Source of the DNA: an uncultured Candidatus Saccharibacteria bacterium
GTDB lineage: Bacteria > Patescibacteriota > Minisyncoccia > Phycocordibacterales > UBA1006
Assembly: GCA_964628065.1 (NCBI GenBank)
Contig: CAZVLM010000001.1
Location: 9,357 to 73,356 of the forward strand
DNA: 64,000 nt
Reading direction: 5' to 3'
Shown: positions 76 through 63,931 of the stretch, piece after piece
How positions within the stretch are numbered: the first letter of the stretch is position 1
Layout of the letters: each line of letters begins with the position of its first letter
Notes under the pieces: model-generated
Told to the model about the DNA's origin: nothing
What the model saw: the letters and a program-made list of their open reading frames with translations, nothing else
Database searches by the model: none
Program-made: the position numbers and the translations under genes

Positions 76-109
76 ATGGAAATTATATCATAAACTCTCA
101 ATAAGATTA

Positions 110-195
110 CCCCGCCTTGCTGCGTCCTTCCGTAGCCTCTGGCGAAGGAGGAAATAAGGCGGGGTCGACTGGCCGTAGGCCAGCGGGGGCGGTGG
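110..195. repeat. GC-rich palindromic mini-element (copy A). CCCCGCCTT...AAGGCGGGG hairpin plus a GCGGGGGCGGTGG module.
   Basis: A ~85-nt GC-rich island in AT-rich DNA. It is an inverted copy of the element at 631..684 and shares a module with the elements at 51.2 kb. Confidence 0.6.
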
Positions 196-334
196 TTACT
201 AAAGGATCAGATAGTGAAGCATAAAAGATGCGGCGACCAAAAAATAACTTATATTCATTCAAGATTCTCCTTAATGATTTCAATTACTTTCTCTATATTA
301 TTCCTAATTGATTCATTTTTAAATCGTAATACTT

Positions 335-517
335 TTATGCCAAATCGAGAATGTATCCACTTACACTGTGCTGACGTCGAAACTTAAACCCTGTTGACGA
401 CCCTCTTAGCTCCTGCCAAAGCAGTCCCTCTTCCGGTGTTGGATTATTACGAAGATACCTTCTTCTTTGAAGAAGTCTTTTACTATTATGAACTCGTTCT
501 GGTGGTTTTTTATCCAT
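335..517 (-). pseudogene. Truncated DUF559 (Vsr-like endonuclease-domain) protein remnant
   Basis: The 60-aa ORF ..RRRYLRNNPTPEEGLLWQELRGSSTGFKFRRQHSVSGYILDLA matches the N-terminal half of DUF559 proteins and stops after ~60 aa, where full length is ~110-130 aa. It is flanked by inverted GC-rich elements. Confidence 0.45.
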
Positions 518-630: not shown

Positions 631-684
631 GCCACCGCCCCCGCCGGCTTCGCCGAGCGACCCCGCCTTATTCAAGGCGGGGTG
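631..684. repeat. GC-rich palindromic mini-element (copy B, inverted relative to A)
   Basis: CCACCGCCCCCGCCGGCTTCGCCGAGCGACCCCGCCTTATTCAAGGCGGGG. It contains a perfect CCCCGCCTT/AAGGCGGGG hairpin. The 20-mer GCTCGGCGAAGCCGGCGGGG (reverse complement) is shared with 51255..51275. Confidence 0.6.
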
Positions 685-686
685 TC

Positions 687-8376: not shown

Positions 8377-11300
8377 TTAATTTCCCAAAATCACCTTCGC
8401 CCTCTTACAAAACTCACATTCGCTATTTGCCCCATAAGACTTCGCCACACAAGGTCGGTCCATCCACTCCCCGCTTGAAACAAGTGACTGATAGTCTGCA
8501 ATGTCTTTGATAAGGAGCTCTACTTCTGCATTGCTAATATGCGCAGAATACAATGCGTTTTTATCTCCTTTTTCAGATTCAAGGAAAAGCAATCGTGATT
8601 GGTCTACATGAGCATCCTTTCCTGTCCCTTCAAGAAGGTAAGAATACATGGCGAGTTGTCTCAAGTAACTCGACATGCGACCTTCATCATCACGCTTTTC
8701 AATCATGCCAGTCGTCTTACTGCTTCCTGTTTTAAAGTCGGTTACCGTCATCGTTCCATCAGGAAACCGTTCAGTAAGGTCGATCTTTCCGTACATTGTT
8801 AAATTTGAAAACTGCGGATCGCGATATGAAACGCTTCGTTCTGATTGGCGATCTTTCGCTAGATTAGGATAATAATTTTCAATCCAACCCGAGACGGCAG
8901 TCCATGCGTCTTTACCAAGTCGTGCAATATCTCGCATATCAAGCACCCCTTCACGCTGAAGCGATGTCATGATAATCTTCTTAATTTCAACCTCTGCTGG
9001 AAGCGTATTCTCTTTCAATAAATGCTCAATCGTAACATGTACCGCCGATCCAAGCGCAAGCGAAACACCTTTTACCTCGGGAAGTTTCAAAAAATTTCTA
9101 AAGTACCACTTCCAAGGACACTCAAAAAAGTTATTAAGGAGTGTTACGGATACTCGATTTTCCGCAAATGACTCTTTTACGAATTCCTTTACGGCTGTTT
9201 TTATATCTTCTTCTGGAGAAACAGCAGGTTTCAATGCGTACAATCGAGGATCATTTTCGATGATACGCTTCTCGTTTTCTTCTGCGTCAATTTTCTCAAA
9301 ATGATCTACTGGCAATTCTTCAACGATTCGCGATAGTGTAATGTCGCTTCCACTATCACTGTTTAATGCATATGAAATAGTTGCGTATCGTTTTGCACGA
9401 GTAAGTGCCACATATAACTCCCTTTTTGCGGTCATCACATCACGCGCCGCAATGCGCTCTTCTATTTTTTCAGGAAGCGTAAAGGCGCTCCTTTTTTCTG
9501 ACATCACTACTTCCTCGTTCATGTGACCGATCCATACATACTCGTACTCAAGTCCTTTTGATTTGTGCAAAGTCATGACTCGAATGCCTGATTCCGCTGC
9601 GAAAGCTGCTACGCTGATTTGGGTTCCGTACGTTGCAAGGCGCCCTAGGTACGCAATAAATTCCTTAAGGGTTCCATTAGGATGTTTTGCATACCACGCT
9701 TCCGAACTTAAAATAAGGCTTCGAACTACCTCGATAGATCTGAGTAATGCTTTATGCCCGTGTGATCGATCAATTAATAACTCATTCCCCAACGTTGAAA
9801 TAACACATGGAATCGTTTCGTGGGTTAGTTTGTTTATCCAATGACTAAGGTCTGTTCCCCATTTTACGATAGGGTCTTGATCATGGAACATGCCTGCGTC
9901 TTTTTGGTAATCAATTAAGTCTTGTACAGTTACTTTGTCTGACTTTTTTGTTACTCTTAAAAACTTGTAAGCCCTCATTGGATCGATACCGCTTGTAGCA
10001 TCAAGGAGTGACTCAGTAATTAATACTGAATCATCTGGATTGGCCAAAATTCCAAGGACTCGGATAAAGCTTTTAGCTTCGGGAAGTGTATACAGCGAAA
10101 CACTGGTTTCTGACTGTGCAGGAAGCCCCATGTCACGGAGCGTAGAAACAGCTGAGCGTACTTGGTAATTCTTAGGAAGAAGTAGTGCACATTCGTCTGG
10201 TGAAACGCCTTGGTCTATCTGCTTTTTAAAATAAAGCCCCGCACCTATTATTTCATCACGGGAAAATCGGAATTGTGAAAGATTGATCTTTTCATCACCT
10301 TTTCGATTACTTTTTAAGGCATCAGTTGTAATAGAGCTTTTTAAAAGCGTATCCGCGAGGCTTAATACGGGCGCTGTTGATCGATAGTTTTCCTGAAGCG
10401 TTATTAACTGAGCCTTTCCAAACGCGTGCCTAAACTCGGAAAAATAATCAAGTGATGCTCCGGAAAATCCATAAATAAGCTGGCGATCGTCCCCCACCAC
10501 GAAAATATTTGGAAGTTCTATTTCCTGCCATACCGCCTTCAAGAAATTATTTTGCACCAACGAAGAATCCTGATGCTCATCTACCAGCACGTATTGATAA
10601 TTTTCGTAAATATCAGCACGCACATCCTCATACTCTTCTACGAGTTGTACGACATATTCTAAGGCGTCATCATAGTCCATGAGATTCGCGTCTTTTTTGG
10701 CAGATTCATATTGTCTATAAAATGAGACGACTTCTTTGGTTCGCGACAATGATTCAATCTTTTTTTCTATTTCTTTCTTAAGTTGTCCTTTGCTTGGCCC
10801 TCGTGATGAAATACTGTCTGGATCATTCTTCAAAAATTCTATGTCGCGATCTACTTCTAATGAAAAAGATTCAGGTGAAAGTCGCTCACGCTTCATCAGG
10901 GAAATTAATTGTTTTAAGTCGCCGAAATATTTTGCAGGATCGGTTCGCGGACGAATGTATTCCCATTCTCCTTCTTGTAAAAGACTGTCCACCATTGCAA
11001 CACTTTGATTATCATCAAGGAGTTCGGGAATGTGATCGAAGCCAAGGAGGTTAAAATGCTTTTGTACGAGATCAATCGCAAATCCGTGGAAGGTTGAAAT
11101 TTTAATATCTCGAGCTGTTGTTCCGATATAGCTTTCGAGACGAGCTCGCATAGCAGCGACTCCGGATCGGGTAAACGTAAGGCAAAGAATACTTGAAGGC
11201 AATGTGTCTGTCTTCTTAAGAATATTAGCAATGCGAAGAGCCAACACCTGCGTCTTGCCGGTTCCTGGACCTGCCACAACCATTACGGGACCTTCTATGG

Positions 11301-11848: not shown

Positions 11849-12952
11849 TTATTTCAAAACAACCTTCCCATTTTTAAGTATCAAAAACCCCTCCCTCTCC
11901 AACCCGCTCACAATAGTTTCAATTCTATCCTTATCATCAGAAAGACTTTCCAATTTCTCTTCGAGCTTCTCAATCAAGAGCTTTTTCTTTTCTAAAAGAA
12001 TTTCCAAAATCTTTCCGCGAATCTCGCGATTACTTCCTTCAAATTTTGATTGCTTGGTATAGTGCCTACTTTTCTTATTAGGATTAGGAATCGATTTTCC
12101 TAAATACGACCCGTAGTCCATGAGCGCCCAATACCATTCACGAGGGTTTTCTTTGTCGACAGTTTTTTCTATGAGTTTTAGAAGTTCCCTATCATGCACC
12201 CCAAACACACCCCGCACTTCGTGTCGACCCTCTCTAAAAGAGAGGGTTTGCTCCGATTGGAGTTCGGTCTCGACGGAGACTGCCCTCTCTTTTAGAGAGG
12301 GTGCCACGCGAAGCGGGCGGGTGTGTTTTGACTGGGACTCCGAGAAAAAATGATGCAAGTACACTCGTCGAATATTTGTCTCAATCATCGAGACAGGCTG
12401 ATTGTATGCAAACGCAGAAATCGCTCCCGCTGTATACGGACCGATTCCTGGTAGTGAAAGAATATCTTCATACGTCTGGGGAAATTTTCCTTTAAATCTT
12501 TGCATAATAATTTCCGCTGACCTTTTCATGCGAATTGCCCTCGAATTGTATCCAAGCCCTTTCCATAGCCGAAGTACGTCCGACTGCTTAGCCTCTGCAA
12601 GTGCCTTCACTGTTGGAAATTCCTTCATCCACTTATTGAAAAAATCTACTACTCTGTCTACTTGTGTCTGCTGAAGCATAATCTCCGAAACGTACACATT
12701 GTACGGCTTCGTATTCTTTCTCCACGGCAACTCGTGGCGTCTATTTGCATGATAATAATCCCAGACAGTTTTTTGGAATTTTTTGAGGTCGGAAGGCTTC
12801 ATGTTGGCAATTATACCAGAAACGAAAATCGCCAGACTTCCTTTAGGAAGTCTGGCGATTATTTTACAGTTGTACAAAGAATTACTCAGCCAACTCCTGG
12901 CCGATAAGCGCGCCGCGTCCGCCGCTGTGCACGTAGTCGTCAGAAAACTCAA
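11849..12952 (-). CDS. HhH-GPD DNA glycosylase (MutY/Nth-like). Likely true start is the ATG at 12802. It carries a ~40-aa in-frame insertion encoded by a GC-rich palindromic element.
   Basis: LPWRKNTKPYNVYVSEIMLQQTQV...LPGIGPYTAGAISAFAYNQPVSMIETNIRRV gives the HhH-GPD signature. Residues ~209-251 (KHTRPLRVAPSLKERAVSVETELQSEQTLSFREGRHEVRGVFG) are encoded by element D. No Fe-S Cys cluster is present. Confidence 0.6.
   Translation of the reverse strand: MSFLTTTCTAADAARLSARSWLSNSLYNCKIIARLPKGSLAIFVSGIIANMKPSDLKKFQKTVWDYYHANRRHELPWRKNTKPYNVYVSEIMLQQTQVDRVVDFFNKWMKEFPTVKALAEAKQSDVLRLWKGLGYNSRAIRMKRSAEIIMQRFKGKFPQTYEDILSLPGIGPYTAGAISAFAYNQPVSMIETNIRRVYLHHFFSESQSKHTRPLRVAPSLKERAVSVETELQSEQTLSFREGRHEVRGVFGVHDRELLKLIEKTVDKENPREWYWALMDYGSYLGKSIPNPNKKSRHYTKQSKFEGSNREIRGKILEILLEKKKLLIEKLEEKLESLSDDKDRIETIVSGLEREGFLILKNGKVVLK
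12203..12329. repeat. GC-rich palindromic mini-element (copy D), in frame inside the glycosylase gene
   Basis: Terminal inverted repeats AAACACACCCCGCACTTCGTG / CACGCGAAGCGGGCGGGTGTGTTT. Two internal hairpins: CCCTCTCTAAAAGAGAGGG and CCCTCTCTTTTAGAGAGGG. Confidence 0.7.
12827..12860 (-). terminator. Perfect 15-bp stem hairpin (AATCGCCAGACTTCC-TTTA-GGAAGTCTGGCGATT) followed by a U-tract on the minus strand
   Basis: Inverted repeat read directly from the sequence. It lies downstream of the ORF ending at 12882 and ~25 nt upstream of the glycosylase ATG at 12802. Confidence 0.5.
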
Positions 12953-24574: not shown

Positions 24575-24690
24575 AGTTCTCAGTTCTGGCGACACCTACT
24601 CTCCCTCTTACGAAGTACCATTGGTGTAGCGGCGCTTAACGACTCTGTTCGAAATGGGAAGAGGTGTGACCACCGTACTAAATCACCAGA
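24575..24690 (-). rRNA. rrf: 5S ribosomal RNA
   Basis: The reverse complement reads ..GGTGGTCACACCTCTTCCCATTTCGAACAGAGTCGTTAAGCGCCGCTACACCAATGGTACTTCGTAAGAGGGAGAGTAGGTGTCGCCAGAAC, with helix I closing as GTTCTGGTG / CGCCAGAAC. Confidence 0.75.
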
Positions 24691-24799: not shown

Positions 24800-28205
<3,406 letters not shown>

Positions 28206-31031: not shown

Positions 31032-31038
31032 TAATTAA

Positions 31039-32574
31039 TTAAGGCAAAACTGTTATCTGCTTAACAAGTGAATTGTTCGCTTCATTCGATTCATTTACTA
31101 AATTGTATCCCCCAGTTGTGCCCATTGCATAGTCATCCACTCGAACTGTAAGTCCAAAAGTTCCACTTACTCCTAATATGTTTGGCGTCGTAGACTGATA
31201 CACGTCCACATCATACGTCTGCCCCACCGCCAGCGTAACAGGATTCATTAATTGCTGTGCGCCATAACTTACGCCATTTTTAAGGAAACTAATCTGAGTT
31301 CCGCGCGGAAGGGTTGCCGTCGCACTGCCAATATTTTTAATCGTTGCATGCACCTTAAAGTTGGTATTAGGTGTTGGTTCTTTCGTCGGGTCGATGATAA
31401 CTCGTACATGCGGAGATGAGGGGGTCCATGTGAAGTCTTCTACGATTAGGTCGGGTTTTGTGATCGAAACAGGGAAATTTGTACATGGTGCAAACTTTTG
31501 AATGCGAGTATTTCCTCCGTCCCCCACATAAACATTTCCATAACTATCTATGGCAACACTAAACGCTCCCCTGAACTGCCCGTCTGCTGAACCATACGTT
31601 CCAAATTGAGTAAGGTAAATACCATTTCCTGTAAATTTTTGGATACGTGAATTATTCCTATCCACAACATACACATTGCCGACTTGGTCTGTCGCAATAC
31701 CGAATGGTTGATTAAATTGACCATTGCCACTACCGTATGTTCCCCATTTACTTATGTATGCTCCGGAAGATGTAAATTTTTGGATACGGTTATTTCCCGT
31801 ACCAACACTATCTGCAACAAAAATATTTCCGAAGATGTCTGCGGCAATACCGAGATTTCCTTGAAACTGACCGTTTCCAGTACCGTACGTTCCCCACTTA
31901 CTTAAATAAACTCCATTTGAATTAAATTTCTGAATTCTGTAATTACCTGTATCTGATACATAAATATTTCCCATGGAATCAATTGCAATTCCCCAGGGAT
32001 TTTTAAACTGTCCATCTGCAGAACCATAAGTTCCCCACTGGGTTATATAGGTACCAGTAGAAGAAAACTTCTGAATACGATGATTAGCACTATCTACAAC
32101 GAAGATATTTCCAAAAGAGTCTACTGCAATACCTTCCGGCATGGCAAATTGACCATTTCCGGAACCACTTCCTCCAAACTGACTAAGATATGTACCTCCT
32201 GAGGAAAACTTTTGAATAAACCCCGTGGTACTGTTATCTGATACATAAACATTATTTGTTTGGTCAACAAAAACCGCACCAACGGAACCAGGGAACAATC
32301 CATTTCCAGAAAACCCAACTCCTCCCCACTTTGTAACAAACTTATACCCACTCGCCGGACATGATAACGGAGCAGTAACCACCGGCCCAGTTGGAATACC
32401 TGCCGGTGTCGGCGTGTTTTGAATAGAGGCAATCTGATTATCCGACAATTTTGTAACTGCGACAGCCCGGTATAACGAAGCGGCATTACTCCCCTGGTAA
32501 TTTTTAACTACTAAAAACGCTCCAGCCGTGATGACTGCGAGCGCAAAAACTGCGAGTGTTAGTTTCTTTTTCAT
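31039..32574 (-). CDS. Secreted NHL-repeat beta-propeller protein with C-terminal CARDB-like domain (paralog 1)
   Basis: Signal peptide, repeated ..GNIYV.D..N.RIQKF.. NHL motifs, and a C-terminal PDLIVEDFTWTPS...NTNFKVHATIKNIGSATA (CARDB-like). Confidence 0.65.
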   Translation of the reverse strand: MKKKLTLAVFALAVITAGAFLVVKNYQGSNAASLYRAVAVTKLSDNQIASIQNTPTPAGIPTGPVVTAPLSCPASGYKFVTKWGGVGFSGNGLFPGSVGAVFVDQTNNVYVSDNSTTGFIQKFSSGGTYLSQFGGSGSGNGQFAMPEGIAVDSFGNIFVVDSANHRIQKFSSTGTYITQWGTYGSADGQFKNPWGIAIDSMGNIYVSDTGNYRIQKFNSNGVYLSKWGTYGTGNGQFQGNLGIAADIFGNIFVADSVGTGNNRIQKFTSSGAYISKWGTYGSGNGQFNQPFGIATDQVGNVYVVDRNNSRIQKFTGNGIYLTQFGTYGSADGQFRGAFSVAIDSYGNVYVGDGGNTRIQKFAPCTNFPVSITKPDLIVEDFTWTPSSPHVRVIIDPTKEPTPNTNFKVHATIKNIGSATATLPRGTQISFLKNGVSYGAQQLMNPVTLAVGQTYDVDVYQSTTPNILGVSGTFGLTVRVDDYAMGTTGGYNLVNESNEANNSLVKQITVLP

Positions 32575-32609
32575 ACCTCTATCATATCCCTAAGCTTTTA
32601 TAGAGTCAA

Positions 32610-34181
32610 TTAAGGCAAAACTGTTATCTGCTTAACAAGTGAATTGTTCGCTTCATTCGATTCATTTACTAAATTGTATCCCCCAGTTGTACCCATTGCA
32701 TAGTCATCAACTCGAACTGTAAGTCCAAACGTGCCAGCTGTTCCGAGAATGTTCGGAGTCGTAGACTGGTACACATCTACATCAAACGTTTGACCCACCG
32801 GAAGCGTAACAGGATTCATCAATTGCTGCGCACCGTGACTTACTCCATTTTTAAGGAAACTTATCTGAGTTCCACGCGGAAGCGTTGCAGTCGCACTACC
32901 GATATTTTTAATCGTTGCATGCACCTTAAAGTTAGTGTTCGGGGTCGGTTCTTTTGTTGGATCAGTAATAATTCGTACGTGAGGAGATGAGGGAGTCCAT
33001 GTAAAGTCTTCTACAATTAGGTCAGGTTTAGTAATACTTAATGGAACTGAAGGGATTCGAACGGGAGTACACGGAGAAAATTTTTCAATTCGGTTATTAG
33101 CTGAATCTGAAACATATATATCTCCTTGGGGACTAACAGCAATACCTACAGGAGCTCTAAACTGACCATTACCATAACCACTACTTCCCAACTGAGCTAT
33201 ATAAGCTCCATTCTGATCAAATTTCTGGACGCGCTCTTGATAATTATCCACCACATAAATATTTCCATAAGAATCAACATCGATACCTACTGGATCCATA
33301 AATTTTCCATTTCCAACATATCCCCTGCTACCGATCTGTGAAAGATATTGCCCTGTTGAGTTAAACTTTTTAACCCCATAACCAGTAAGGCTCGTGATAT
33401 AAATGTTTCCCGCTGTATCAAGAAATACATCGTTGTCTACACCTGTTGGATTTGAAAATTGCCCGCTTGCAGAACTTCCCGTCCCAAACTGGCTTAAATA
33501 TCCTCCATTCGACTTAAACTTTTGAACACGATTATTATACCTATCAACAACATAAATATTTCCCGCTGTATCGATCGCAATACCTCCGGGGCCATTAAAT
33601 TGTCCATTATTAGCGCCAAGCGTTCCCCATTGGGTAATATAATTTCCCTGAGAATCAAATTTTTCAACTCTATTGTTACCAGTATCAACTACATAAACAT
33701 TTCCTGTCATATCAATTGCAATGCCTCCTAAAGAGTCACCTAATGCGAAATTTGGAACCTGAAATTGTCCATTCGCTGATCCTTGCGTTCCCCACTGTAA
33801 TATATATTGACCACTTGAATTAAACTTCTGAATACGATTGTTACGAGCATCATGAACATAAACATCCCCCGATGAATTAACGGCTATATATCCGGGGATA
33901 GCGAACTGGCTATTGCCTGAACCATAGACGCCCCACTGAGAAACATAATTATACCCGCTCGCCGGACATGATAACGGAGCAGTAACCACCGGCCCAGTTG
34001 GAATACCTGCCGGTGTCGGCGTGTTTTGAATAGAGGCAATCTGATTATCCGACAATTTTGTAACTGCGACAGCCCGGTATAACGAAGCGGCATTACTCCC
34101 CTGGTAATTTTTAACTACTAAAAACGCTCCAGCCGTGACGACTGCGATCGCAAAAACTGCGAGTGTTAGTTTCTTTTTCAT
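32610..34181 (-). CDS. Secreted NHL-repeat beta-propeller protein with C-terminal CARDB-like domain (paralog 2)
   Basis: Same architecture as paralog 1. The first ~78 aa and last ~140 aa are near-identical to it at the nucleotide level, while the central repeats are divergent. Confidence 0.65.
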   Translation of the reverse strand: MKKKLTLAVFAIAVVTAGAFLVVKNYQGSNAASLYRAVAVTKLSDNQIASIQNTPTPAGIPTGPVVTAPLSCPASGYNYVSQWGVYGSGNSQFAIPGYIAVNSSGDVYVHDARNNRIQKFNSSGQYILQWGTQGSANGQFQVPNFALGDSLGGIAIDMTGNVYVVDTGNNRVEKFDSQGNYITQWGTLGANNGQFNGPGGIAIDTAGNIYVVDRYNNRVQKFKSNGGYLSQFGTGSSASGQFSNPTGVDNDVFLDTAGNIYITSLTGYGVKKFNSTGQYLSQIGSRGYVGNGKFMDPVGIDVDSYGNIYVVDNYQERVQKFDQNGAYIAQLGSSGYGNGQFRAPVGIAVSPQGDIYVSDSANNRIEKFSPCTPVRIPSVPLSITKPDLIVEDFTWTPSSPHVRIITDPTKEPTPNTNFKVHATIKNIGSATATLPRGTQISFLKNGVSHGAQQLMNPVTLPVGQTFDVDVYQSTTPNILGTAGTFGLTVRVDDYAMGTTGGYNLVNESNEANNSLVKQITVLP

Positions 34182-34190
34182 ACACTTATC

Positions 34191-34820
34191 TTACTTCCTT
34201 AATTCAGGATGGTCAATCTTATTGATCAACTTCTCATGAGGATAATCAAGCATATCCCGAAGCAATTTGTCATACATGTTAAGTCGGTAAATGAATTCTT
34301 CTGTTTCGAAAACGGCGTATCGCAACTCCTTTCCGATTTCTGATTCAAGTTCCTTAATCTTTCGATCAATCGCTTTTCGTTCCAGTCGATCTCCGACAAT
34401 CATAAGATCCATTGTTCGGTCGTTGTCATGCAAGAAAATTCCAGAAACTACGAAGAGTCCAATCTTGCCAATCTTATTAAATCGAGGAAGCAAATCAGGA
34501 ATATGAGTTCCTGCAGCATCAACCAGAAGACTTCGAAGGGGTTCGCTGAGCGTAAACTCTTTTACAGCGACATATCCTGGATACTTCTTTCTCTTTGTGC
34601 TTTTTCCTTTAACTATTACTTTTGTGACAACCTTTGGCTTGATCATACCCACTTTTGCAAGCTCCAAAAGATCGCTTTTAATAAGTTTAGGCTGGACTCG
34701 TAATCGCTCCGCCAAGTCCTCAATAGATATTGCAATATCTTGATTCAATAAGAAAAACTTCATCAGTTTCACCCGAGTCATCGATCCAAACAATCTTCCT
34801 AAAATATCAAGCTGTTTCAT
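34191..34820 (-). CDS. wHTH protein with C-terminal minimal nucleotidyltransferase-like region (hypothetical regulator)
   Basis: N-terminal ..ISIEDLAERLRVQPKLIKSDLLELAKVGMI.. wHTH. C-terminal ..GLFVVSGIFLHDNDRTMDLMIVGD.. resembles the GS..D.D of minimal NTases. Confidence 0.35.
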   Translation of the reverse strand: MKQLDILGRLFGSMTRVKLMKFFLLNQDIAISIEDLAERLRVQPKLIKSDLLELAKVGMIKPKVVTKVIVKGKSTKRKKYPGYVAVKEFTLSEPLRSLLVDAAGTHIPDLLPRFNKIGKIGLFVVSGIFLHDNDRTMDLMIVGDRLERKAIDRKIKELESEIGKELRYAVFETEEFIYRLNMYDKLLRDMLDYPHEKLINKIDHPELRK

Positions 34821-51069: not shown

Positions 51070-51300
51070 CCTCACCCCCAGCCCCTCTCCAACACACCCG
51101 TCACTCGCTCCGCTCGTGTACACCCTCTCTAAAAGAGAGGGTTGGCTCCGTCGAGATTATGTACCAATAGAAACTACCGCTTATCTCATAGAGTTAAGCG
51201 GTAGTTTCATTTCAAAATTGAGTCTCGATGTCTACCCTCTCTTTTAGAGAGGGACGCTCGGCGAAGCCGGCGGGGTGTGTTTGTCCGTCGGGTGAGGACA
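51070..51300. repeat. GC-rich composite palindromic element (copy E) with nested inverted repeats
   Basis: Outer IR CCTCACCC / GGGTGAGG. Inner TIR ACACACCCG.. / ..CGGGGTGTGT. Hairpins CCCTCTCTAAAAGAGAGGG, CCCTCTCTTTTAGAGAGGG and AAACTACCGCTTA..TAAGCGGTAGTTT. Confidence 0.7.
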
Positions 51301-53483: not shown

Positions 53484-53600
53484 AGAACACATCACAAGAA
53501 CACACCCGCCCGCTTCGCGAGGCACCCTCTCTAAAAGAGAGGGTAGACCATCGAGATTTTTTTCAGGAAGGAACATTCTTGTGATGTGTTCTTTTCTGAC
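53484..53600. repeat. GC-rich palindromic half-element (copy F) bracketed by a 16-bp inverted repeat
   Basis: ACACACCCGCCCGCTTCGCGAGGCACCCTCTCTAAAAGAGAGGG, flanked by GAACACATCACAAGAA ... TTCTTGTGATGTGTTC. Confidence 0.6.
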
Positions 53601-54844: not shown

Positions 54845-54886
54845 CTATAAACGACACTATAAACTTAAAATGTCTTTTATGCAATG

Positions 54887-55013
54887 CCCTCATCCGCCCT
54901 TCGGGCACCTTCTCCCTTTGGGAGAAGGCTACACTTTCGACTTCAGTTGGCACCAATAAAAATGTCTGCCCCTCTCCCTTTGGGAGAGGGTGCCCGAAGG
55001 GCGGGAGAGGGTT
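54887..55013. repeat. GC-rich palindromic mini-element (copy G) immediately upstream of ftsK
   Basis: TIRs CCGCCCTTCGGGCACC / GGTGCCCGAAGGGCGG. Internal hairpins CTTCTCCCTTTGGGAGAAGG and CCCTCTCCCTTTGGGAGAGGG. Confidence 0.65.
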
Positions 55014-55051
55014 GGAATATAAGGGTTTTTACTGATATACTTATAGGACAA

Positions 55052-57313
55052 ATGGCAAAAAAAGATCTGAAACAAAAGAAAAATTCTGTTGAAAAAGCTC
55101 CAGAGGAATCTAGCAATCCTCGTATTAAGCGATCTATTATCGCGATCATTTTACTTGCGATTACGGTAGTTATTATCCTCGGAGCCTTTGATGCGGCAGG
55201 TATTGCCGGTCATTTTATCTATCATTCGGTGCTTAAATTTTTGGTAGGATTTGGTGTTATCTTAGTGCCTATCTTCCTTGTCGTTTATGCGGTAAACCTT
55301 CTTAAGAACCAGCCTCACGAGTGGTCATGGGTTGAGTATGTTAGCTCTTCCCTTTTGATGATTTCCATCCTTGGTTTCATCCAAATTATTTCTCCAGGAA
55401 TTAAAGGCGGTGGCGTTATTGGGTACGGCATAGGAACCGTTATGACGAAGATTTTTGATGTCTATGCCGGCGCAACAATATTAGGTGCCGTTGCACTTAT
55501 TTCGACATTGGTACTTATTGATGAGGAATTAAGAATGCCTGCGTTCCTTAAAAATATGTTTTCTAAGTCTTCAAAAGAAGAGTCATTTGTTGATGAAGAT
55601 TTTGTACTCACAAAAGCAGATTTGAATGAATTACCACCAGCTCCAATAGCGGACCCTCTCCTTGCAGGAGAGGGTGGACGGCGCCAGCCGCCGGGTGAGG
55701 TTGTGAAAGCTGAAGTACCCGAAGAACCTCGGATTGCTAAAAAAGAAAAAGTTGAGGACGAGTTCATTACTGCAAATGCCGTATTTTCAGAAACATATGA
55801 ATACCCTCCAACCAGCCTCCTTGGTCAGTCATCAGGCAAGCCATCCGTTGGAGACATCAAAGCGAACGCGAACTTGATCAAGCGAACCCTTTTGAACTTT
55901 GGAATTGATGTGGAAATGGATGAAGTTTCAATCGGGCCAACCGTGACTCGCTACGCTTTGAAACCAGCGGAAGGTATTAAGCTGACCCGAATTCTCGCAC
56001 TCAAATCTGACCTTGCACTCGCCCTTGCCGCCCACCCTATTCGAATCGAAGCCCCTATCCCTGGCAAGTCATTAGTAGGTATCGAAATTCCGAACAGAAC
56101 TCTTGAGAATGTAGGTCTTGGAACCCTGCTTGATGAAGACTCATTCCAGAATTCTCCTAACCGTCTTCAGGTTGCCCTTGGAAAGGGGGTGGCTGGAAAG
56201 TCTTACTTTGCAAACTTAGCAAAAATGCCGCACCTTTTGATTGCCGGAACTACAGGATCAGGAAAGTCGGTTACTATGCACAACTTAATCCTGTCGCTCT
56301 TATATAAGAACGGACCTGAAGACCTCCGGGTTATTATGATCGACCCAAAACGAGTAGAACTTACTCTTTATAATGATATCCCCCACCTTCTAACACCTGT
56401 TATTAAAGAATCAAAGAAGGCTATCCTTGCCCTTAAATGGGCCGCGAAGGAAATGGAACGACGGTATGACATTCTTGAAAATTGCTCATGCCGAGACATT
56501 CAGTCCTATCATGCAAATATCCAAGACCCCTACTATGCTAAGACCAAGAAAAAAAGTCGCGATGACGATGATACAGATACCAAGGCGCCGGAGCGAATGC
56601 CTTACATCGTAGTATTTATTGAAGAGTTGGCCGACATCATGCAGGCATATCCTCGCGAATTGGAAGCCGGTATTGTCCGACTTGCCCAAATGTCCCGAGC
56701 CGTGGGTATTCACCTCATCCTTTCAACCCAGCGACCATCCGTGAACGTTATTACCGGACTTATTAAAGCCAATATTCCATCACGATTAGCACTTCAAGTA
56801 GCCTCTCAGATTGACTCTCGAACAATTTTGGATGCGCCAGGCGCCGAATCGCTTCTTGGTAAGGGAGATATGCTCTATCAAGGTGCTGACATGTCTAAGC
56901 CTGAACGTATGCAGTGTGCAAACGTAGATGAAAACCAAGTTAAGAAAGTCGTTGCCTTTATTAAGAAGCACAACGTTTCCCTTCCTGACGAAATCGCCTT
57001 GGGCGAAGTATTGGATGATGACCGATCAATTGTTTCAGCTAATCTTGAAAGCGACGAGGACGACGAACTTTATGAAGATGCTCGAGCCTGCGTTATTGAG
57101 GCCGGCAAAGCTTCAACCAGCTATATTCAGCGAAAATTGAAGGTTGGCTACTCTCGAGCAGCGCGCCTCATCGACCTTTTGGAGGAACGCGGAGTGGTTG
57201 GTCCTGCGGACGGCGCGAAACCTAGAGAAGTACTTAGTGGTGGATCTTCTCCTGAAATTGGGTTATCCACAACCGATGTTATTGATAGATTAAACGAGGA
57301 GAGCGAGGTATAA
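55052..57313 (+). CDS. ftsK: DNA translocase FtsK (start reassigned to the ATG at 55052)
   Basis: N-terminal TM helices, Walker A GTTGSGKS, Walker B/RecA-like motor, C-terminal gamma wHTH (..YIQRKLKVGYSRAARLIDLLEERGVVGP..). The track ORF start at 54884 reads through repeat element G. Confidence 0.9.
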   Translation: MAKKDLKQKKNSVEKAPEESSNPRIKRSIIAIILLAITVVIILGAFDAAGIAGHFIYHSVLKFLVGFGVILVPIFLVVYAVNLLKNQPHEWSWVEYVSSSLLMISILGFIQIISPGIKGGGVIGYGIGTVMTKIFDVYAGATILGAVALISTLVLIDEELRMPAFLKNMFSKSSKEESFVDEDFVLTKADLNELPPAPIADPLLAGEGGRRQPPGEVVKAEVPEEPRIAKKEKVEDEFITANAVFSETYEYPPTSLLGQSSGKPSVGDIKANANLIKRTLLNFGIDVEMDEVSIGPTVTRYALKPAEGIKLTRILALKSDLALALAAHPIRIEAPIPGKSLVGIEIPNRTLENVGLGTLLDEDSFQNSPNRLQVALGKGVAGKSYFANLAKMPHLLIAGTTGSGKSVTMHNLILSLLYKNGPEDLRVIMIDPKRVELTLYNDIPHLLTPVIKESKKAILALKWAAKEMERRYDILENCSCRDIQSYHANIQDPYYAKTKKKSRDDDDTDTKAPERMPYIVVFIEELADIMQAYPRELEAGIVRLAQMSRAVGIHLILSTQRPSVNVITGLIKANIPSRLALQVASQIDSRTILDAPGAESLLGKGDMLYQGADMSKPERMQCANVDENQVKKVVAFIKKHNVSLPDEIALGEVLDDDRSIVSANLESDEDDELYEDARACVIEAGKASTSYIQRKLKVGYSRAARLIDLLEERGVVGPADGAKPREVLSGGSSPEIGLSTTDVIDRLNEESEV
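55652..55700. repeat. GC-rich palindromic mini-element (copy H), in frame within the ftsK linker region
   Basis: GGACCCTCTCCTTGCAGGAGAGGGTGGACGGCGCCAGCCGCCGGGTGAGG encodes ..DPLLAGEGGRRQPPGEV.. Confidence 0.6.
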
Positions 57314-63121: not shown

Positions 63122-63931
63122 TTAAACACTTAGATTAAAGAATTTTTGTGTATTTTTAAGGAGTTGCTGGCGCACATCTTCCTCATCCATATTTTTAAGT
63201 TCCGCAACCTTCTTCGCAACTTCTATCACCATCCATGGCTCGCACGGTTTTCCTCGATACGGTGCAGGCGCTGCAAATGGCGCATCTGTTTCTATCATGA
63301 GTGATTCAAGTGGTACTGCCTTTATCATTTCGTCATAATCTCGTGAAAAAGTAATCGGTCCATCAACGGAAACAGTAAAACCTGCGGAAACAATTGCTTC
63401 CATACATTCTTTTGATCCTGAGAAGAAATGGAAATTGGCACGCAGTGGTGCGGAATCCTCCTCTTGCCAAGAGGAGGTGCCGAGGCTCTGCGAGGCGGAG
63501 GAGTTTTCAAGAATTTTTAATGCATCATAATACGCATTATCACTCCCCTTCGATGCGCGCACATGAAGCATCAGTGGCTTGTTTACTTTCTTTGCGAGGG
63601 TAATATGCTTCTTAAAAATATCTTCTTGAATCTTTCGAGATTCGGGAGTGTCTTCATGAAAATAGTCGAGTCCGGTTTCGCCAATGGCGACTACTTTAGG
63701 ATTGAGGGCAAGTTTTTCTAGTTCACTCCAGCCACCATCCTCACCCGGTTCGCTGCGCGAACCACCCTCTCCACTATCGTGGAGAGGGTTACTGCAATAG
63801 CATGGATGGATTCCCACTGTTGCCCAGCAGGTGTCAGGATACGCCTCAGCGATCTCAACCGCTGTTTTGGAGGTCTCAAGCCCTGTTCCAACCGTGATCG
63901 TCGCCACACCCAAATCTTTCATTTTAGCCAC
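63122..63931 (-). CDS. TatD-family metal-dependent hydrolase carrying two in-frame GC-rich palindromic insertions
   Basis: ..TVGIHPCY...VVAIGETGLDY...LMLHVRAS...FHFFSGS...IETDAPF.. are TatD motifs. Extra segments SNPLHDSGEGGSRSEPGEDGGW and NSSASQSLGTSSWQEEDSAPLRA are encoded by the elements at 63737..63790 and 63448..63505. Confidence 0.8.
   Translation of the reverse strand: MAKMKDLGVATITVGTGLETSKTAVEIAEAYPDTCWATVGIHPCYCSNPLHDSGEGGSRSEPGEDGGWSELEKLALNPKVVAIGETGLDYFHEDTPESRKIQEDIFKKHITLAKKVNKPLMLHVRASKGSDNAYYDALKILENSSASQSLGTSSWQEEDSAPLRANFHFFSGSKECMEAIVSAGFTVSVDGPITFSRDYDEMIKAVPLESLMIETDAPFAAPAPYRGKPCEPWMVIEVAKKVAELKNMDEEDVRQQLLKNTQKFFNLSV
63448..63505. repeat. GC-rich palindromic mini-element (copy I1), in frame inside TatD
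   Basis: CCTCCTCTTG-CCAAGAGGAGG hairpin plus GCCGAGGCTCTGCGAGGCGGAGG. Confidence 0.6.
63737..63790. repeat. GC-rich palindromic mini-element (copy I2), in frame inside TatD
   Basis: CCTCACCC GGTTCGC-TGC-GCGAACC A CCCTCTCC-ACTATCGT-GGAGAGGG. Confidence 0.6.

Follow-up and report, generated by a model that had tools for sequence, protein, structure and literature searches.

How does a compact GC-rich repeat come to lie within an ftsK gene's open reading frame (ORF), and to what kind of element does it belong? The question is raised by a 64,000-nt stretch of DNA, referred to here as the window, from an uncultured Candidatus Saccharibacteria bacterium (assembly GCA_964628065.1, contig CAZVLM010000001.1), in which a preliminary description had pointed to a palindromic insertion in the linker of FtsK. 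The reading favoured here, to which a probability of roughly 0.85 may be assigned, is that a repeat of the class known in Escherichia coli as BoxC, PIT (potential intrastrand triplex) or TMECO has been copied into the ftsK linker in frame, is read through, and is kept by a constraint that acts at the level of DNA. Membership of the family, the insertion, preservation of the frame, conservation at the nucleotide level and recurrence in other FtsK linkers are each demonstrated by comparison of sequences. The gene and the parts of the element are located in the window as follows.

55052-57313, plus strand: ftsK gene, 753 aa, which hosts the element in the linker between the membrane domain and the alpha domain (from Pfam and the start of relatives)
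55652-55702, plus strand: inserted segment of 51 nt, or 17 codons (GAC...GTT), peptide DPLLAGEGGRRQPPGEV (from the empty site in the DNA of P0010, locus L215, and the linker lengths of P0017 and P0018)
55654-55661, plus strand: pyrimidine arm CCCTCTCC, the Watson-Crick stem being extended over 55653-55662
55663-55665, plus strand: loop 1, TGC, of the 10-bp hairpin (from the DNA fold)
55666-55675, plus strand: purine arm AGGAGAGGG(T), complement of the pyrimidine arm, with the 8-nt core GGAGAGGG at 55667-55674 (from the sequence and the DNA fold)
55676-55692, plus strand: loop 2, a GC-rich 17-nt hairpin (hp2), GGACGGCGCCAGCCGCC (from the DNA fold, covariation and the same hp2 in the tatD copy of L001)
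55693-55701, plus strand: third arm GGGTGAGGT, which mirrors the purine arm (from the purine-motif rule used by the finder)

The repeat itself is real, as the 50-nt string quoted in the preliminary description is found at 55651-55700 on the plus strand, its start having been placed one base late, at 55652. The hairpin had been written as CCCTCTCC-N6-GGAGAGGG; the spacer between the 8-nt arms is instead TTGCA (5 nt, 55662-55666), and the literal N6 pattern matched nothing, even with 2 mismatches. In the DNA fold the stem extends to 10 bp (ACCCTCTCCT/AGGAGAGGGT) and the spacer shrinks to a closing TGC loop. The hairpin behind the term “palindromic” is therefore present, but the CCGGGTGAGG end ascribed to it is a third arm that mirrors the purine arm, so that the term describes the element incompletely. 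This third arm has no Watson-Crick complement; it repeats the purine arm in mirror order, an A being matched by either A or T, and 9 of the 9 triads that GGGTGAGGT forms against AGGAGAGGG are of the allowed kinds (G*G:C, A*A:T, T*A:T). An alternative in which the third arm pairs in Watson-Crick fashion with the C-arm was dropped on inspection, as it needs at least 2 mismatches. As single-stranded DNA the element folds at -16.8 kcal/mol, against -9.5 +/- 2.0 in shuffles (z = -3.7; 0 of 200 shuffles as good), and GC content around it is ~71%, against 41% genome-wide.

Comparison with relatives indicates that this 51-nt repeat is inserted in frame, as exactly 17 codons, into the FtsK linker. Residues 201-217 of FtsK are the peptide DPLLAGEGGRRQPPGEV, encoded by the element in the same frame as the 753-aa protein, and they fall between the 4TM region (aa 49-156) and the alpha domain (aa 252-348) recognised by Pfam. 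An AlphaFold model, poor as a whole (mean pLDDT 53.5), gives aa 169-264 no secondary structure at pLDDT 26-37 and weakly suggests a disordered linker. Between the anchors LTK..LN and IAKK the linker measures 46 aa in the window and in P0002, 45 aa in P0003 and P0004, 29 aa (46 minus 17) in P0017 and 25 aa in P0010 and P0018, and relatives at 73-77% identity keep both linker flanks and lack the 17-codon insert. P0017 was compared by linker length; at the DNA level the comparison is with P0010 (L215), whose empty site reads ...GCC CCT ATT GCA / GAA CAA AAG..., or APIA / EQKEEPKPIQIAKK, where the window has APIA / (17 aa) / VKAEVPEEPRIAKK. The linker comparison and the empty site thus bear out both the reading of the repeat in the FtsK frame and an insert of exactly 17 codons, as the preliminary description had it; the possibility, raised there, that relatives free of repeats carry the same peptide found no counterpart, the peptide occurring only in the relative with the identical element and being absent from element-free relatives. 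In that relative, whose FtsK is 95% identical, the same 55 nt are found in three independent assemblies (L001-L003), and the element is for this reason not an assembly artefact. The linker holds only one copy, and not a second one as had been supposed, since the remaining motifs nearby form a doublet (54887-55011) upstream of the real start codon, ATG 55052, where relatives begin MAKKDLK. The NCBI model of FtsK is 809 aa long, starts from ATG 54884 and runs through this doublet (..APSPFGRR..PLPLGEGARRAGEG.., 54884-55051); its N-terminal extension is probably an annotation artefact, because relatives are without the doublet and start at MAKKDLK (55052).

The ftsK copy is one of ten elements in the window that are recognised by a rule-based finder, which demands a perfect pyrimidine/purine hairpin and, within 30 nt, a mirrored third arm (G*G:C, A*A:T, T*A:T); 20 block shuffles preserving local composition gave 0. 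The family pattern gave 7 matches (6 elements) in the window and 0 in 100 shuffles, and a covariance model of copies from other phyla found nine window copies at E < 1e-4. Both orientations are present, and the ten copies include 3 inverted doublets. Besides the ftsK copy they are:

12205-12326: inverted doublet inside a mutY-like HhH-GPD gene (11849-12952, minus strand), with 12205-12246 on the minus and 12283-12326 on the plus strand
51092-51280: intergenic inverted doublet, with 51092-51141 on the minus and 51235-51280 on the plus strand (covariance model and finder)
53500-53543, minus strand: intergenic single copy (covariance model and finder)
54887-55011: inverted doublet just upstream of the ftsK start, with 54887-54928 on the minus and 54970-55011 on the plus strand (covariance model and finder)
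63457-63504, plus strand: tatD site 2, in frame and antisense to the gene, arms CCTCCTCT/AGAGGAGG/GGAGGAGT (site empty in L005)
63739-63788, minus strand: tatD site 1, in frame and sense, peptide NPLHDSGEGGSRSEPGED (site empty in L005)

Five arm sets are used by these ten copies, given here as pyrimidine, purine and third arm, and in every set the third arm matches its own purine arm.

CCCTCTCT / AGAGAGGG / GGGTGTGT
CCCTCTCC / GGAGAGGG / GGGTGAGG, which includes the ftsK copy
CCCTCTCCC / GGGAGAGGG / GGGAGAGGG
CCTTCTCCC / GGGAGAAGG / GGATGAGGG
CCTCCTCT / AGAGGAGG / GGAGGAGT, at tatD site 2

The genic copies (5 of the 10: ftsK, two in tatD, two in the mutY-like gene) leave the ORF intact in 5 of 5 cases. 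The view that ftsK offers one more in-frame case in an essential gene is matched as far as the frame is concerned, given the two in tatD and the doublet in the mutY-like gene, while the essentiality of ftsK is an assumption. The mutY-like gene reads in frame through the whole ~120-nt doublet, between the HhH-GPD domain and a downstream ..WYWALMDYG.. motif, and the four closest relatives cleanly lack the doublet at 54887-55011. The tatD gene of the window (63122-63931, minus strand) carries two in-frame motifs; in L001 both tatD sites are occupied as well, by other elements than in the window, so that the occupant changes and the occupancy stays. At site 2, L001 holds a remnant of the window copy (the third arm and half of hp2), followed by a different copy in the sense orientation that has exactly the hp2 of the ftsK element (30-nt exact match, E = 5e-12). 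As hp2 is otherwise hypervariable, the shared hp2 indicates recent copying between the ftsK and tatD loci. The assignment of the ftsK repeat to a family, already made from its hairpin and end, is upheld by the architecture and the sequence blocks common to it and the nine other window copies, together with this 30-nt block in the tatD copy of the sister genome.

The family extends well beyond the window. In a family-pattern scan of one genome per species, whose results hold among the matches listed, copies occur in Alphaproteobacteria, Acidobacteriota, Planctomycetota, Chloroflexota, Geobacter, Bacteroidota, Armatimonadota and Patescibacteria. Between the second and third arms the pattern leaves a stretch free, and in 84% of 135 copies this stretch forms a hairpin; among these 135 there are 118 distinct hp2 sequences, with loops that are mostly C(GNA)G triloops. 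Across the family the sequence of hp2 varies and its pairing is kept: in 44 copies from outside Patescibacteria all 8 pairs show compensatory double changes (99 cells; shuffles 27.6, slid controls 12-35). The covariance model, R1, was built from these 44 copies of equal geometry, none of them from Patescibacteria, because MAFFT alignments of the window copies, whose loop lengths vary, were structurally wrong. Over its full length R1 matches the ftsK copy with 41.6 bits (E = 2.4e-10), and the match spans 55651-55702 (52 nt), coinciding with the 51-nt inserted segment. R1 recognises only arms of the CCCTCTC type and misses most motifs in other Patescibacteria, for which the rule-based finder was used. 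In a wider sample from that group, 137 pyrimidine/purine hairpins with asymmetric arms were followed downstream by a mirrored arm in 59 cases; the controls in the same hairpins were a direct repeat downstream (12), a mirrored arm upstream (7) and a shuffled arm downstream (16). No Rfam family matches the element, either in the window at gathering thresholds or at three alphaproteobacterial loci at E <= 1.

On these sequence data the ftsK element is a member of the BoxC/PIT/TMECO family in which a GC hairpin serves as loop 2. TMECO, known in the 1990s as the BoxC repeat and to Maher and co-workers (2000) as the PIT element, has the consensus 5'-CCCTCNCCC N3-6 GGGNGAGGG N3 GGGNGAGGG, and E. coli K-12 has 23 copies, “always located intergenically” and sometimes in inverted pairs (Holder et al., 2015, Nucleic Acids Res, PMC4666352). 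The repeats described here share the order of blocks on one strand, namely a C-rich arm, a loop, the complementary G-rich arm, a second loop and a mirrored G-rich arm, and their arms (CCCTCTCC/GGAGAGGG/GGGTGAGG) are nearly identical to the consensus (CCCTCNCCC/GGGNGAGGG/GGGNGAGGG), apart from a length of 8 nt here against 9. The hairpin loop falls within 3-6 nt, whether the stem is counted as 10 bp, which leaves 3 nt for the loop, or as 8 bp, which leaves 5 nt, and both sets are multi-copy, occur in both orientations and often as inverted pairs, and occupy loci that vary between close strains. They differ in that loop 2 is an 11-25-nt covarying GC hairpin (17 nt in the ftsK copy), whereas in TMECO it is 3 nt; in that the ftsK copy and 4 of the other 9 window copies lie inside ORFs, the intergenic location being descriptive of the E. 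coli set and not structural; and in the host, here a Patescibacteria genome of 41% GC. The ITxF search of Holder et al. allowed loops of 1-6 nt (PMC4666352), and the hairpin-looped form was beyond its reach because of that limit. What is new with respect to the known family is thus the structure (a hairpin as loop 2), the context (in frame in core genes) and the host (Patescibacteria); the open-access literature searched held no description of the hairpin-loop variant, which is weak evidence.

Other short repeats resemble the ftsK element in part. The closest analogy for the effect on the protein, one of function and not of membership, is offered by the Rickettsia palindromic elements (RPEs), reportedly described in 2000 by Ogata and co-workers in Science as in-frame insertions in many unrelated protein-coding genes, essential ones included; the ftsK copy, too, is inserted in frame and leaves the ORF intact. 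RPEs are ~100-150 bp long, AT-rich and restricted to Rickettsia, without a third mirrored arm, and are translated as a surface peptide that is tolerated in loops; by that description the 51-nt length, the GC content and the host lineage argue against membership, and no kinship in sequence is to be expected. REP and REPIN sequences with their RAYT transposases are similar as short GC-rich hairpin repeats, single or in inverted doublets, with a small nuclease gene (here DUF559) between inverted copies. However, no GTAG or CGTC head is present at 55645-55708, the ftsK element consists of two hairpins and a third arm, REPs are extragenic and lack a mirrored extra arm, and the gene between the inverted copies is a DUF559 gene with the PD-(D/E)XK/Vsr fold rather than a Y1 HUH gene, the ORFs of the window having been scanned for RAYT non-exhaustively. 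A simple REP/RAYT identity was rejected on the grounds of the missing head and the extra arm. The GC clusters and double-hairpin elements of fungal mitochondria lie in an AT-rich genome, intergenically or in frame in coding regions, and are suspected of moving with the aid of endonucleases; they share with the present family the GC-rich form of one or two hairpins and both kinds of location, but they are organellar and lack a third arm of the triplex type, and no relation in sequence is known. MITEs (miniature inverted-repeat transposable elements), such as Correia/NEMIS, are likewise small and non-autonomous, have inverted symmetry and are present in some strains and absent from others. The ftsK site, in contrast, has no target-site duplication, no terminal inverted repeats match known insertion sequences, and single units are not bounded by terminal inverted repeats; a simple MITE identity was rejected because terminal inverted repeats bounded by a target-site duplication are lacking.

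The FtsK linker is a recurrent site of these repeats. Among 83 Patescibacteria loci with FtsK relatives, the rule-based finder gave 51 motifs, 16 of them in ftsK, all within intact ORFs of 732-845 aa and equally divided between sense (8) and antisense (8); 11 of the 51 lie in the FtsK linker, which makes up 4% of the sequence scanned (binomial p = 5e-6, the events being not all independent). In some Patescibacteria (L175, 3505-3578; L182, 3977-4050) a second in-frame motif doublet is seen in a surface loop of the FtsK motor domain, where it aligns with ..KTKKKSRDDDDTDTKAPERMP.. of the window protein. Between the window and L001 the ftsK genes are 84.6% identical and the rest of the linker 81.8%, and no other identical run in the gene is as long as the one made up of the element and its immediate flanks (65 nt; runner-up 32 nt; permutation p ~0.006). 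A constraint that acts on DNA, in single-stranded form, and not on RNA or on the peptide is indicated by four features: the mirror rule followed by the third arm, the loops of the C(GNA)G type, the absence of a strand preference with respect to transcription, and the conservation of silent sites. C(GNA)G loops are a hallmark of very stable DNA mini-hairpins, not of RNA ones.

A possible agent of spread is suggested by genes that accompany the motifs. DUF559 (YcjD-like) genes, whose products have a Vsr-like fold (match to PDB 3HRL, E = 8e-20), lie between or adjoin inverted motif copies at four loci selected by the family pattern (L033, L041, L043 and L107). Conversely, of eight loci picked solely by DUF559 protein similarity (plasmid records of cyanobacteria, Deinococcus, and alpha- and betaproteobacteria), 7 have the gene between or beside inverted motif copies, against ~0 in shuffles, and in a control covering 28-40 kb around four DUF559 genes, 7 of the 11 motifs in 140 kb fall within 155 nt of the DUF559 gene (p = 2e-10). 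The DUF559-motif loci include L216-L219, L126-L129, L211-L214, L033, L041, L043, L107, L130 and one place in the window:

106-685: two inverted variant elements (106-194, plus strand; 633-685, minus strand) that enclose a frameshifted DUF559 pseudogene with an internal deletion (~220-517, minus strand)

The arms of these variant elements contain a C/G step (CCCCGCCTT/AAGGCGGGG/GGGGCGGTGG), and they are mirror repeats, not pure purine-motif arms. In L001 the tatD ORF (9025-10287, minus strand, 420 aa) contains at site 1 a complete DUF559 ORF in frame, bounded by CCCTTCCC/GGGAAGGG/GGGGATGGG motifs; near this position the window carries a single motif and L005 none. In E. coli a degenerate hairpin lies at the stop codon of ycjD, and a canonical BoxC follows ~170 nt downstream. 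Because DUF559 genes lie between inverted motifs in Deinococcus, cyanobacteria, Proteobacteria and Patescibacteria, and because of this BoxC downstream of ycjD, it may tentatively be proposed that BoxC/PIT/triplex-motif repeats serve the small DUF559 (YcjD-like, Vsr-fold) endonuclease genes as targets or as non-autonomous partners. The proposal is doubtful, and several observations weigh against a simple dependence on DUF559: in ~2,000 E. coli genomes the BoxC part of the ycjD region is matched and ycjD is not, the motif pairs flank DUF559 in both polarities, and the arms beside DUF559 in the window and in L001 differ from those of nearby orphan copies. The open-access papers searched made no mention of an association between the motif and DUF559, which is again weak evidence. 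Two side observations concern the same genes. In E. coli K-12 (L130, 4190-4480) the last ~45 nt of ycjD are duplicated ~70 nt past the stop codon, ahead of BoxC; a second DUF559 3' end seems to have left this remnant. In two Deinococcus species (L216, 19968-20309; L217, 19968-20306) a motif-flanked DUF559 gene occupies different positions in the hpa (4-hydroxyphenylacetate) operon, which is consistent with mobility of the unit.

Several other accounts of the ftsK element may be considered. As the sequence of FtsK linkers varies greatly, with P, E and G often abundant, and the element is short, a native low-complexity linker could come to resemble GC-rich hairpins by chance or through shared codon usage; this is hardly credible, however, and is refuted by the match to a model from other phyla, the 30-nt exact match to a tatD copy and the lack of exactly these 17 codons in relatives. 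The absence of matches in shuffles and the high local GC content within a genome of far lower GC also speak against it. It is also conceivable that the element functions as RNA in the ftsK message, either as a stable hairpin at which ribosomes pause between membrane domain and motor or as a control of mRNA stability, and owes its retention to that role and not to being selfish or structural DNA. The hairpins are strong, the nucleotide sequence is perfectly conserved between two diverged genomes, silent sites included, and the inter-domain position is one at which a translational pause could help membrane insertion. This account is nonetheless improbable: copies in genes are as often antisense as sense, further copies are intergenic, the hp2 loops are mostly of the C(GNA)G type, and the third arm is without a Watson-Crick partner and follows a mirror rule specific to purine-motif DNA triplexes, which are said not to form in RNA, while PIT/TMECO elements in E. 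coli have no promoter or terminator activity (Holder et al., 2015). A very remote prospect is that the element is removed before the protein is made, in the manner of an intron or intein or by translational bypass, leaving FtsK without the 17 residues. A group I self-splicing intron is present in the 23S rRNA gene of this genome, and in yeast mitochondria the “byp” elements derived from GC clusters are bypassed by ribosomes. However, all genic copies (5 in the window, 15 in other ftsK genes and 4 in L001) are in frame and free of stop codons, which would be needless if they were removed; no Rfam intron or ribozyme matches the element, and a 17-aa peptide is too short for an intein.

More weight, though still less than even, may be given to the possibility that an ancestral inverted doublet has left the ftsK copy as its surviving half, or that gene conversion repeatedly replaces copies at this site, the present one being the latest. 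In relatives at 78-79%, L005 has a nearly intact antisense motif (10591-10637) offset by two codons from the ftsK site, L004 has a decayed sense copy at the site, and the linker is of about equal length in the window, L004 and L005. The two tatD sites of L001 are of a similar kind: at site 2 a different sense copy follows what is left there of the antisense copy of the window (its third arm and half of hp2), and at site 1 DUF559 and different copies stand in place of the solo copy of the window. Palindromic pairs with partial deletions have been described (Holder et al., 2015). Against this, the inserted length equals one unit exactly by comparison with P0017 and P0010, and no remnant of a second unit is recognisable beside the ftsK copy. 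The L004 and L005 motifs nevertheless belong to a group of points that weigh against in-frame insertion of a triplex-type repeat as set out above, since on their account the history may be that of a decaying ancestral doublet or of repeated replacement and not of one clean insertion. Across ~25% divergence, the ftsK junctions (GCG / GAC ... GTT / GTG, against the empty GCA / GAA) show no target-site duplication of at least 2 nt. That the element is translated in FtsK is inferred from the preserved frame. The single-stranded DNA of TMECO adopts a class II purine triplex in vitro, as established with E. coli oligonucleotides, and the triplex was not detected in vivo (Holder et al., 2015); since the in-vitro triplex is known only for those oligonucleotides, the triplex fold of the form with a hairpin as loop 2 is predicted.

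Insertion of a BoxC/PIT/TMECO-class repeat with retention at the DNA level allows a model to be proposed for the ftsK locus. One copy would have entered the linker in an ancestor that this genome shares with its nearest relatives, adding 17 stop-free codons that the ribosome most likely reads through and that would form part of a flexible, length-tolerant tether. Genic copies would survive only where the frame is kept and the protein tolerates an extra peptide, as in linkers and surface loops, and such selection by tolerance would account for the repeated hits on, or re-use of, these sites. The geometry of the arms is that required by a purine-motif DNA triplex or hairpin in single-stranded DNA. 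The means of spread is speculative, with a DUF559 (YcjD-like, Vsr-fold) endonuclease acting on these structures as the leading candidate.

Elsewhere in the window, several families of diverged direct repeats (140-300 nt) at 31037-34193 probably code for domains that recur within one large gene. At 24584-24690 there is a 5S rRNA gene, and the 23S rRNA gene (24826-28189, minus strand) contains the group I intron at 25122-25338 (Rfam RF00028, 57 bits).

To our knowledge, the function and the means of spread of BoxC/PIT/TMECO have gone unexplained since the 1990s. Their structure has been defined in vitro, and in E. coli they have been reported as strictly intergenic, unlinked to mobile elements and associated with local genome variability (Holder et al., 2015). 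The hairpin-looped form, which earlier searches could not detect, extends the family to Patescibacteria and to many other phyla. The family can sit in frame in core genes and recurs in FtsK linkers, where the DNA sequence of the element is kept while the surrounding linker drifts, and it would thereby contribute directly to the evolution of protein linkers, much as RPEs do in Rickettsia. For annotation, the motifs give rise to false N-terminal extensions and to odd “GEG/PLS” peptides in annotated proteins. The association between motif and DUF559 is strong and easily testable, and would turn an old descriptive puzzle into an experimental one. If the partnership is true, it would represent a REP/RAYT-like or homing-like system based on a structure-specific nicking enzyme, which in bacteria of the candidate phyla radiation (CPR) has colonised coding sequences, even to the extent of a whole DUF559 ORF in frame in tatD, and which may supply raw material for linkers such as that of FtsK.

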